Shown piece by piece: positions 2,691 to 6,773 of a stretch of 64,000 nt of DNA (its first letter is position 1; each line of letters begins with the position of its first letter). Origin of the DNA: Hormiphora californensis (taxonomy: Eukaryota; Animalia; Ctenophora); contig CM035361.1 of NCBI GenBank assembly GCA_020137815.1, positions 682,001-746,000 of the forward strand, given 5' to 3'. Under the pieces are notes generated by a model that saw only the letters and a program-made list of their open reading frames with translations, was not told the DNA's origin and searched no databases. A program made the translations under genes and the position numbers.

Positions 2691-5600
2691 CCTTCATCAG
2701 GTGGAAAGGTAGCCTGCCGCTGTAGTGGCTGGCCCCAACCCTAACCCAATTCCCTCACTCAGGTGGAAAGGTAGCCTGTCCTCCTGGTAGGAGGTGGCTG
2801 TGCCCCAACCCTAACCCCAATTCCTTCACTCAGGTGGAAAGGTAGCCTGTCCCTCCTGGTAGGTGGCTGTGCCCCAACCCTAACCCCAATTCCTTCACTC
2901 AGGTGGAAAGGTAGCCTGCCCGCCTGGTAGGTGGCTGTGCCCCAACCCTAACCCCAATTCCTTCACTCAGGTGGAAAGGTAGCCTGCCCGCCTGGTAGGT
3001 GGCTGTGCCCCAACCCTAACCCCAATTCCTTCACTCAGGTGGAAAGGTAGCCTGCCCGCCTGGTAGGTGGCTGTGCCCCAACCCTAACCCCAATTCCTTC
3101 ACTCAGGTGGAAAGGTAGCCTGCCCGCCTGGTAGGTGGCTGTGCCCCAACCCTAACCCCAATTCCTTCACTCAGGTGGAAAGGTAGCCTGCCCGCCTGGT
3201 AGGTGGCTGTGCCCCAACCCTAACCCCAATTCCTTCACTCAGGTGGAAAGGTAGCCTGCCCGCCTGGTAGGTGGCTGTGCCCCAACCCTAACCCCAATTC
3301 CTTCACTCAGGTGGAAAGGTAGCCTGCCCGCCTGGTAGGTGGCTGTGCCCCAACCCTAACCCCAATTCCTTCACTCAGGTGGAAAGGTAGCCTGCCCTCC
3401 TGGTAGGTGGCTGTGCCCCAACCCTAACCCCAATTCCTTCACTCAGGTGGAAAGGTAGCCTGCCCGCCTGGTAGGTGGCTGTGCCCCAACCCTAACCCCA
3501 ATTCCTTCACTCAGGTGGAAAGGTAGCCTGCCCGCCTGGTAGGTGGCTGTGCCCCAACCCTAACCCCAATTCCTTCACTCAGGTGGAAAGGTAGCCTGCC
3601 CTCCTGGTAGGTGGCTGTGCCCCAACCCTAACCCCAATTCCTTCACTCAGGTGGAAAGGTAGCCTGCCCGCCTGGTAGGTGGCTGTGCCCCAACCCTAAC
3701 CCCAATTCCTTCACTCAGGTGGAAAGGTAGCCTGTCCTCCTGGTAGGTGGCTGTGCCCCAACCCTAACCCCAATTCCTTCACTCAGGTGGAAAGGTAGCC
3801 TGCCCGCCTGGTAGGTGGCTGTGCCCCAACCCTAACCCCAATTCCTTCACTCAGGTGGAAAGGTAGCCTGTCCCTCCTGGTAGGTGGCTGTGCCCCAACC
3901 CTAACCCCAATTCCTTCACTCAGGTGGAAAGGTAGCCTGCCCGCCTGGTAGGTGGCTGTGCCCCAACCCTAACCCCAATTCCTTCACTCAGGTGGAAAGG
4001 TAGCCTGCCCGCCTGGTAGGTGGCTGTGCCCCAACCCTAACCCCAATTCCTTCACTCAGGTGGAAAGGTAGCCTGCCCGCCTGGTAGGTGGCTGTGCCCC
4101 AACCCTAACCCCAATTCCTTCACTCAGGTGGAAAGGTAGCCTGCCCGCCTGGTAGGTGGCTGTGCCCCAACCCTAACCCCAATTCCTTCACTCAGGTGGA
4201 AAGGTAGCCTGCCCTCCTGGTAGGTGGCTGTGCCCCAACCCTAACCCCAATTCCTTCACTCAGGTGGAAAGGTAGCCTGCCCGCCTGGTAGGTGGCTGTG
4301 CCCCAACCCTAACCCCAATTCCTTCACTCAGGTGGAAAGGTAGCCTGCCCTCCTGGTAGGTGGCTGTGCCCCAACCCTAACCCCAATTCCTTCACTCAGG
4401 TGGAAAGGTAGCCTGCCCTCCTGGTAGGTGGCTGTGCCCCAACCCTAACCCCAATTCCTTCACTCAGGTGGAAAGGTAGCCTGCCCGCCTGGTAGGTGGC
4501 TGTGCCCCAACCCTAACCCCAATTCCTTCACTCAGGTGGAAAGGTAGCCTGCCCGCCTGGTAGGTGGCTGTGCCCCAACCCTAACCCCAATTCCTTCACT
4601 CAGGTGGAAAGGTAGCCTGCCCGCCTGGTAGGTGGCTGTGCCCCAACCCTAACCCCAATTCCTTCACTCAGGTGGAAAGGTAGCCTGCCCGCCTGGTAGG
4701 TGGCTGTGCCCCAACCCTAACCCCAATTCCTTCACTCAGGTGGAAAGGTAGCCTGCCCGCCTGGTAGGTGGCTGTGCCCCAACCCTAACCCCAATTCCTT
4801 CACTCAGGTGGAAAGGTAGCCTGCCCGCCTGGTAGGTGGCTGTGCCCCAACCCTAACCCCAATTCCTTCACTCAGGTGGAAAGGTAGCCTGCCCGCCTGG
4901 TAGGTGGCTGTGCCCCAACCCTAACCCCAATTCCTTCACTCAGGTGGAAAGGTAGCCTGCCCGCCTGGTAGGTGGCTGTGCCCCAACCCTAACCCCAATT
5001 CCTTCACTCAGGTGGAAAGGTAGCCTGCCCTCCTGGTAGGTGGCTGTGCCCCAACCCTAACCCCAATTCCTTCACTCAGGTGGAAAGGTAGCCTGCCCGC
5101 CTGGTAGGTGGCTGTGCCCCAACCCTAACCCCAATTCCTTCACTCAGGTGGAAAGGTAGCCTGCCCTCCTGGTAGGTGGCTGTGCCCCAACCCTAACCCC
5201 AATTCCTTCACTCAGGTGGAAAGGTAGCCTGCCCGCCTGGTAGGTGGCTGTGCCCCAACCCTAACCCCAATTCCTTCACTCAGGTGGAAAGGTAGCCTGC
5301 CCGCCTGGTAGGTGGCTGTGCCCCAACCCTAACCCCAATTCCTTCACTCAGGTGGAAAGGTAGCCTGCCCTCCTGGTAGGTGGCTGTGCCCCAACCCTAA
5401 CCCCAATTCCTTCACTCAGGTGGAAAGGTAGCCTGCCCGCCTGGTAGGTGGCTGTGCCCCAACCCTAACCCCAATTCCTTCACTCAGGTGGAAAGGTAGC
5501 CTGTCCCTCCTGGTAGGTGGCTGTGCCCCAACCCTAACCCCAATTCCTTCACTCAGGTGGAAAGGTAGCCTGCCCTCCTGGTAGGTGGCTGTGCCCCAAC

Positions 5601-6686
5601 CCTAACCCCAATTCCTTCACTCAGGTGGAAAGGTAGCCTGCCCGCCTGGTAGGTGGCTGTGCCCCAACCCTAACCCCAATTCCTTCACTCAGGTGGAAAG
5701 GTAGCCTGCCCGCCTGGTAGGTGGCTGTGCCCCAACCCTAACCCCAATTCCTTCACTCAGGTGGAAAGGTAGCCTGCCCGCCTGGTAGGTGGCTGTGCCC
5801 CAACCCTAACCCCAATTCCTTCACTCAGGTGGAAAGGTAGCCTGCCCGCCTGGTAGGTGGCTGTGCCCCAACCCTAACCCCAATTCCTTCACTCAGGTGG
5901 AAAGGTAGCCTGCCCGCCTGGTAGGTGGCTGTGCCCCAACCCTAACCCCAATTCCTTCACTCAGGTGGAAAGGTAGCCTGCCCTCCTGGTAGGTGGCTGT
6001 GCCCCAACCCTAACCCCAATTCCTTCACTCAGGTGGAAAGGTAGCCTGCCCGCCTGGTAGGTGGCTGTGCCCCAACCCTAACCCCAATTCCTTCACTCAG
6101 GTGGAAAGGTAGCCTGCCCGCCTGGTAGGTGGCTGTGCCCCAACCCTAACCCCAATTCCTTCACTCAGGTGGAAAGGTAGCCTGCCCGCCTGGTAGGTGG
6201 CTGTGCCCCAACCCTAACCCCAATTCCTTCACTCAGGTGGAAAGGTAGCCTGCCCGCCTGGTAGGTGGCTGTGCCCCAACCCTAACCCCAATTCCTTCAC
6301 TCAGGTGGAAAGGTAGCCTGCCCGCCTGGTAGGTGGCTGTGCCCCAACCCTAACCCCAATTCCTTCACTCAGGTGGAAAGGTAGCCTGCCCGCCTGGTAG
6401 GTGGCTGTGCCCCAACCCTAACCCCAATTCCTTCACTCAGGTGGAAAGGTAGCCTGTCCTCCTGGTAGGTGGTTGTGCCCCAACCCTAACCCCAATTCCT
6501 TCACTCAGGTGGAAAGGTAGCCTGCCCGCCTGGTAGGTGGCTGTGCCGCAACCCTAACCCCAATTCCTTCACTCAGGTGGAAAGGTAGCCTGCCCTCCTG
6601 GTAGGTGGCTGTGCCCCGACCCTAACCCCAATTCCTTCACTCAGGTGGAAAGGTAGCCTGTCCTCCTGGTAGGTGGCTGTGTCCCA
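2691..6686 (+). repeat. 68-bp tandem satellite (~59 units) built from the 3' splice site and 5' part of the LDLa exon
   Basis: Unit CCCCAACCCTAACCCCAATTCCTTCACTCAG|GTGGAAAGGTAGCCTGCCCGCCTGGTAGGTGGCTGTG. Phase is kept over 15 units between 3961 and 4981 (1020 bp). The last unit runs directly into the LDLa exon. Confidence 0.97.
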
Positions 6687-6773
6687 ATCAGAGATGTATA
6701 CAGCAGGACTGGTTATGTGATGGGTTTGATGACTGTGGAGATGGGGCTGATGAGGCAGACTGTTATAAATCAG
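6645..6773 (+). CDS. Exon: LDL-receptor class A domain
   Basis: [42 protein letters not shown] has six Cys and the acidic CDGxxDCxDGxDE motif. Phase 1-1 exon bounded by CAG| and |GTAATT. Missed by the ORF track. Confidence 0.93.

Follow-up and report, generated by a model that had tools for sequence, protein, structure and literature searches.

Introduction

What becomes of a splice acceptor that has been copied, together with the start of its own exon, dozens of times in front of itself? This question is raised by a locus of the ctenophore Hormiphora californensis, contained in a stretch of 64,000 nucleotides (nt) of GenBank assembly GCA_020137815.1 (contig CM035361.1, forward-strand positions 682,001 to 746,000) that we refer to as the window and within which all coordinates are given. 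Near the start of the window, a first-pass annotation had noticed a 4-kb array in which a 68-nt unit, made of a 3' splice site and the beginning of an exon for an LDL-receptor class A (LDLa) module, is repeated head to tail. It had offered three scenarios for splicing, namely that the spliceosome picks the last acceptor, that it ratchets through all of them, or that it makes a variable number of in-frame 24-nt micro-exons. Our analysis identifies the array as a large, two-generation mirage, that is, a boundary-spanning minisatellite of a kind already known. We estimate the probability at roughly 70% that it is a mirage-type minisatellite whose 58 extra acceptors are likely silent decoys, removed with the intron, and whose last acceptor, at 6645, is the one used.

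Structure of the array and its exon

Tandem Repeats Finder (TRF) placed the array at 2685-6687, with a period of 68 nt, 58.9 copies, 98% matches, 0% indels and a score of 7714, and the acceptor motif TCAG/GTGGAAAGG (the slash marks the splice point here and below) was found 59 times between 2701 and 6645, which bears out the earlier count of about 59 copies. The spacing from one acceptor to the next is 68 nt in 53 cases, 69 nt in three, and 62 and 71 nt in one case each. Each unit consists of 25 nt of intron end, with a CTAAC, a pyrimidine-rich tract and CAG, followed by 43 nt of exon start, the latter having been put too low, at about 37 nt, in the first-pass annotation. The CTAAC that had been assigned to each unit does lie no more than 30 nt upstream of the acceptor in 59/59 cases, and it is likewise true that the 59th copy alone continues into the complete LDLa exon, leaving 58 decoy units.

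The decoy units are highly uniform, 39 of them being identical and 10 more carrying a one-base change of CCG to CCT; three are 69 nt long and six are singletons. Five of the six singletons stand at the ends of the array, within its first two or last three units (the string of unit types reads DEC...GHI); the core of the array is homogenised and the edge units are divergent. Over the 43 nt of exon start, the real exon has 3 differences from the commonest unit and a single difference from three of the units. No higher-order structure was found in the order of the unit variants, where the longest repeated pattern (7 units) was within the range of shuffled orders. Folding of three units together with the exon start indicated no special RNA structure (-71.6 kcal/mol, z = -0.24), a search of Rfam over 1-12000 gave 0 matches at gathering score, and scans of metagenome contigs for two patterns, one of 46 nt from the unit and one of 33 nt from the exon part, gave 0 matches each, a result that is uninformative. 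Telomere-like sequences were observed at the 5' edge of the array (CCTAACCTAACC, 2676-2687) and within every unit (CCCCAACCCTAACCCCAA, unit positions 39-55, G-rich on the opposite strand).

The exon at the downstream end encodes a complete LDL-receptor class A module. Pfam PF00057 (Ldl_recept_a) matched it over positions 2-37 of the 37 in the profile, at 42.6 bits (cut-off 24.1) and an E-value of 6.9e-11, and its six cysteines have the canonical spacing C-6-C-4-C-6-C-5-C-8-C. The match spans the repeated 43 nt, which encode the first and second cysteines and an aromatic residue, and to this extent the earlier reading of the array as built from a 3' splice site plus an LDLa exon start is upheld. 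The exon is bounded by the acceptor CAG/GT and the donor CAG/GTAATT and is in frame with the open frame from 7507. Across contigs from another sample and from a related organism we counted four synonymous and two replacement differences in the exon, as expected of a coding exon.

The inferred next exon lies in an open frame at 7401-9260 with a weak TSP1_spondin match at residues 602-618, and would be delimited by an acceptor at 7506/7507 and a donor, G/GTGAGT, at 9252/9253. Further downstream and on the same strand are more LDLa-coding and repeat-rich frames; a Pfam search of 20 further frames returned LDLa, ShK and GIY-YIG domains only. Comparison of one frame with a protein atlas yielded a mixture of bacterial clusters and a single chordate one, at scores of no more than 0.89-0.91, and 29 hits were returned for a 254-amino-acid frame in a homologue search. 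The host gene is the gene of a secreted mucin-like protein of a marine animal. The coordinates of the features are collected in Table 1.

Table 1. Features at the boundary-spanning array and in its surroundings (window coordinates).
Feature	Position	Strand	Basis
Old decayed array, ~37 units of 50-70 nt, running off the window start	1..2190	+	blastn, wrap-around alignment
Isolated decayed unit between old part and young array	~2486..2570	+	wrap-around alignment rows 2454, 2519
Young array, 58 decoy units of 68 nt	2685..6644	+	TRF, motif positions, unit typing
Authentic LDLa exon, 129 nt, phase 1 to 1	6645..6773	+	Pfam, translation, splice sites
Very high-copy dispersed repeat within the next intron (6774-7506), separate from the array	6895..7479	.	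word depth
Putative next exon with mucin-like repeats rich in Ser/Thr/Glu; a thrombospondin (TSP) type 1 repeat begins at its end	7507..9252	+	open frame
Small boundary-spanning repeat, 30 nt x 3.6, 100% identical	9618..9728	+	TRF row 9621-9728

As to the body of the LDLa-exon gene, very long open frames with acidic Thr/Glu/Ala repeats at 17241-22902 make up its mucin-like part. These include a 27-nt repeat of 30.8 copies at 18286-19117 and a 33-nt repeat of 13 copies at 20842-21271, and a Pfam search of the frame 20632-22902 matched no family.

Older copies and two rounds of amplification

Upstream of the uniform array lie about 37 decayed units and one isolated unit (Table 1), all of them missed by the first-pass annotation. 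The old units match the young consensus at 39-57 of 68 positions (roughly 60-80% identity), and blastn with three young units gave 17 matches in 21-2163, with 66-84% identity and all on the plus strand. The same search returned no copy in the 57 kb downstream of the LDLa exon. The isolated unit is flanked by A/T runs at 2471-2495 and 2629-2675.

The decay across the old units is flat. Their match to the young consensus is 0.71 in the 24 nt proposed as a micro-exon, 0.69 in the GTAGGT hexamer proposed as its donor, 0.74 over the remaining exon part and 0.68 over the intron part, with CAG retained in 11 of the 37 units and GTAGGT in 5 of the 37, so that neither the 24 nt nor either splice signal has been selectively retained. 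The longest open frames of the old array (187 amino acids on the plus strand and 156 on the minus strand) are within random expectation; in C-rich random sequences the mean was 161.5 (standard deviation 37), and 19.7% of 300 such sequences reached at least 187. The ~37 decayed copies alongside the uniform array indicate that the array is old and was re-amplified recently. At least two rounds have taken place at this locus: the older amplification is decaying neutrally, and the units of the recent one are still 98-100% uniform.

A short frame, MVFTKLLCVVLF, with the look of a signal peptide was observed at 2256-2292, where a non-repeat gap separates the old array from the young one. The weak phase-1 donor that follows it, G/GTTGGA, would join it to the LDLa exon in frame, and the short frame could be due to chance. 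As a candidate first exon (a Met followed by a hydrophobic stretch) this segment was rejected, given that the TATAAATA at 2229 is too near the ATG and that the donor is poor.

Copy number and direction of origin

To place the array in other samples, we used the contigs and word depths of four DNA runs, two from one organism (organism A; X1, and X5 from a second sample) and two from a relative (organism B; X7 and X12). These contigs collapse the repeat, and their summed word depth is not a copy number. Over 6430-6681 the depth was 9,238-13,088 in X1 (single-copy flanks ~52) and 55,412-151,666 in X5 (flanks ~340), giving ratios of unit to single-copy sequence of ~180-250 and 160-450, respectively, against 59 assembled units, with the proviso that these are ratios of summed depth. 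In organism B the corresponding depths were 5-252 in X7 (flanks ~44-75) and 0-85 in X12 (flanks ~43-52), which puts the unit near the single-copy level, at ~1-5 units by depth. One X12 contig of 194 nt, on 6560-6744, contains one decoy unit and the exon at ~90% identity. The duplication is thus present in organism B but small there, and the large amplification is that of organism A.

That mis-assembly produced the array or the greater part of it seems to us extremely unlikely. The short-word contigs leave the figure of 59 without independent confirmation, and a 354-nt X1 contig on 6655-6888, which reaches from the unit-like exon start across into the remaining exon, differs from the window by six letters and two gaps. 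However, the differences look like allelic variation, since the three that fall in the exon comprise two synonymous changes and one Q>L, and within the array itself the internal variants are ordered and the edge units divergent. Further, both separate samples of organism A have the unit at a depth two orders of magnitude higher than that of single-copy sequence, by which a spurious repeat is ruled out, with longer alleles or further copies being possible.

These data also bear on which came first, the exon or the satellite. The exon is the source of the repeat, rather than the reverse, because the Ldl_recept_a profile runs across the repeated 43 nt. If instead a satellite family had already been in place, the exon could have captured its acceptor and first 43 nt from the adjoining copies, a sequence of events with which the reach of the decayed units over at least 2.2 kb further upstream, beyond the window, would be consistent, as would the depth in X1 and X5, which is above 59 copies' worth and leaves room for copies elsewhere. 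Yet the first two cysteines of the module and the aromatic residue are all encoded within the 43 nt, in frame and at the exact spacing, and an unrelated satellite would be very unlikely to yield such a canonical LDLa start. In addition, the other 57 kb of the window hold no copy of the unit, and organism B shares the exon start with so few units. We therefore regard a satellite origin of the exon start as very improbable.

Splicing through 59 acceptors

In the reading that we prefer, the intron end and LDLa exon start were copied head to tail; slippage at the boundary, or unequal exchange there, would have given rise to the array, followed by a recent re-amplification. By exon definition, the last acceptor would win, since no other leads into an exon of full size with a proper donor downstream, while transcripts that used a decoy and read on would meet a premature stop and be lost to nonsense-mediated decay (NMD). 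Reading on from a decoy acceptor does lead to a stop 25 codons past the split codon in 53/58 decoys, in line with the earlier figure of about 26 codons; the unit length of 68 is not a multiple of three, and frames within the array stay open for at most ~62 codons. From the analogy with known mirages and from the reading frame, we infer that the acceptor at 6645 is used.

Several points weigh against this reading. The 58 decoys share the CTAAC, the pyrimidine tract and the CAG of the real acceptor, so that only the sequence further downstream would explain their silence. The upstream exon is outside the window, and the intron is therefore seen in part only. Contigs from RNA libraries (runs X16, X17, X19 and X22) were mapped on 6430-10300, where 10 of the 12 contigs fell on the dispersed repeat of the next intron and one X16 contig of 186 nt was identical to 7743-7928; none of the 12 lay on 6430-6894 and no joints were found in 6430-10300, which leaves the junction uncovered. 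As for the extent of the array, the assembled number of 59 is not confirmable from collapsed contigs, and the depth suggests somewhat more units or copies elsewhere in the genome. Finally, part of the reason for the low depth in organism B could be sequence divergence, given that contigs were matched at a cut-off of 80% and units of organism B less alike than this would be missed.

The micro-exon scenario holds that the GTAGGT at +24 is used as a donor, such that variable in-frame 24-nt exons add the octapeptide GGKVACPP before the LDLa module. The hexamer had been said to follow each acceptor at 24 nt; this is the case in 54/59 copies (one of which is the real exon), but in three it stands at +25 and from the first two it is absent. 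Acceptor, 24 nt and hexamer are thus in frame in 53 of the 58 decoys, the common variants (TGC or TGT, CCG or CCT) are indeed synonymous in that frame, and the hexamer also stands, as noted before, at 13549, where the first-pass gene model had used it as a donor. However, the real exon must read through its own GTAGGT at +24 (codons G-R-W) to make the LDLa module, so that the hexamer is evidently not an efficient donor in this context, and the extra C of the three 69-nt units lies within the proposed micro-exon, where the resulting 25-nt versions shift the frame. The synonymous variants simply reproduce the states that the real exon itself has (TGT CCT), which is what copies or conversions of a constrained exon would show, and in the old copies neither the 24 nt nor either splice signal stands out by its conservation. 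Size is a further difficulty. The distance from the GTAGGT donor to the next acceptor is 44 nt (68 minus 24), as had been calculated, compared with 89 nt for the shortest intron readable in the gene (14100-14188), and a 24-nt exon and a 44-nt intron are each below the range of most animal spliceosomes without special enhancers. Neither the three 25-nt units nor the flat decay of the old copies would be expected of a functional coding micro-exon, and we consider this scenario unlikely.

The juxtaposed CAG/GT of every unit would also allow recursive splicing, with each site used once as an acceptor and again, regenerated, as a donor, and the intron being removed in 68-nt steps. Donors conform to the consensus GTRAGT, in which the G at +5 is strongly conserved. 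The donor regenerated at CAG/GTGGAA departs from this consensus at +4, +5 and +6, the conserved G included, and by this consensus-level comparison is not the strong regenerated donor of a recursive splice site. Steps of 68 nt would moreover have no obvious purpose in a 4-kb stretch, and CAG has been lost in 26/37 old units. Ratcheting through the array therefore strikes us as highly improbable.

There is a further reading in which the array would not be inert. Some transcripts would use decoys, either adding GGKVACPP octapeptides before the LDLa module or undergoing NMD, and the length of the array would tune the output or the N-terminal structure of the secreted mucin-like protein. We hold this, too, to be unlikely. 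The length of the array does differ strongly between organisms A and B. Of the three scenarios proposed at the outset, only the use of the last acceptor fits the amphioxus reports discussed below, and the micro-exon and recursive readings are disfavoured by the features of the sequence set out above.

A second boundary repeat and other elements in the window

The small repeat at 9618-9728, in the same gene, presents the opposite kind of boundary. It contains four identical donors, TTTTG/GTAAGT (GT at 9630, 9660, 9690 and 9720), the first of which ends an exon starting at ~9497, and an in-frame TAA directly follows each of the four. This repeat corresponds to the main array, but on the donor side, and is similar to that of human F7. 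The occurrence of a second boundary repeat in one gene suggests that such repeats are a habit of this genome and not a one-off. We also observed that an 89-nt intron (14091-14189; donor GAG/GTTAGT, acceptor CACAG/TCC) consists, from its donor on, almost entirely of ~7 copies of the 11-nt TAGTAACACCC.

The dispersed repeat in the intron after the LDLa exon has a word depth in X1 of 65,000-265,000, against ~52 in single-copy flanks, with loose ends at 6898, 7107 and 7477. In each of the four DNA runs, which cover both organisms, it has a depth of tens to hundreds of thousands; it has internal 31-nt sub-repeats and many different flanks, and it is matched by marine metatranscriptome contigs. It probably represents a non-autonomous mobile element that is very abundant. 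A telomere-like (GGTTAG)n of eight copies is found at 7201-7248, in the same intron.

Elsewhere in the window, two near-identical ShK-like frames (26248-26604 and 29857-30282; Pfam PF01549, 27.2 bits for the first) point to a local duplication of ~3.6 kb. A GIY-YIG frame (25528-25908, minus strand; Pfam PF01541, 23.6 bits) is flanked by inverted AT-rich microsatellites of 8-12 nt at 25011-25069 and 25952-26015. GIY-YIG domains occur in Penelope-like retroelements.

Comparison with known boundary-spanning repeats

With 59 identical acceptors, each accompanied by a branch-point-like motif, the array is a natural substrate for the study of 3' splice site choice among equals; acceptors have received far less attention in this respect than donors, for which human F7 served as a model. 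The decayed copies and the low-copy relative together trace how a repeat of this kind passes, at a single locus, from birth through amplification and decay to re-amplification. The kind of element, the intron-gain argument and the usual outcome, normal splicing, have all been published, and at the level of DNA sequence the present case adds size and detail but no new principle. A full-text literature search on the mirage term and concept returned no genome-wide treatment and only the few papers cited here.

The original paper on the mirage in Adh3 is that of Canestro et al. in 2002. Amphioxus mirages have been described in Adh3, troponin C, the globins BflGb6 and BflGb9, and PGBD5 (PMC3087553, PMC3902484); Ebner et al. 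2010 (PMC3087553) cite earlier cases in Adh3 and other genes, and the troponin C and PGBD5 cases are added by PMC3902484. These repeats are reported to copy splice sites and to leave the splicing of the mRNA undisturbed (PMC3087553, PMC3902484), and they evolve in concert with divergent boundary units and were proposed as a model of intron gain (PMC3087553). The ctenophore array shares their structural properties. It is a minisatellite-like tandem duplication of an intron/exon boundary, its units are head to tail, of minisatellite size and equipped with AG/GT signals, an edge copy is the authentic boundary, and the core evolves in concert while the boundary units diverge. As in BflGb6, the copies hold the intron's 3' end together with the 5' portion of the next exon. 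It is unlike BflGb6, which has 3-6 units, in its 59 copies and 4 kb with ~37 decayed units besides, and unlike the amphioxus mirages generally in that its units also hold an in-frame 24-nt pseudo-exon. In amphioxus, normal splicing was established by reverse-transcription PCR, whereas for the present array it is predicted.

In human genes, comparable repeats have been described on the donor side. The 37-bp minisatellite of F7 intron 7 has identical pseudo-donors that are normally silent, and served as a model of splice-site choice in which, with experimental support, 5'-to-3' scanning picks the first donor (PMC1557585). Common to F7 and the ctenophore array is an edge unit that spans an exon/intron boundary and so yields identical pseudo-splice sites. 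F7 differs in being donor-sided and having few copies, in which it matches the small repeat at 9618-9728, and the first-donor rule is not directly transferable to acceptors. The 25-bp variable number tandem repeat (VNTR) of ABCA7 intron 18 has 12 to ~427 units, starts at and repeats the splice site, and varies in length between individuals in correlation with mis-splicing and out-of-frame products (PMC5954066). It resembles the present array as a long intronic tandem repeat that repeats a splice site, and differs in lying on the donor side and in having a demonstrated effect on splicing.

The first-pass annotation had presented the array as a novel natural test of intron gain by tandem duplication, a claim that overlooks the literature, in which boundary-spanning minisatellites and the intron-gain argument are both already in print. 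The Rogers model derives new introns from the tandem duplication of an AGGT-containing exon segment (PMC3265369, PMC4974935). What the ctenophore array shares with it is a tandem duplication that multiplies splice signals. Where the model creates a new intron within a continuous exon and restores the old mRNA, the duplication here took place at an existing acceptor and merely lengthened an existing intron.

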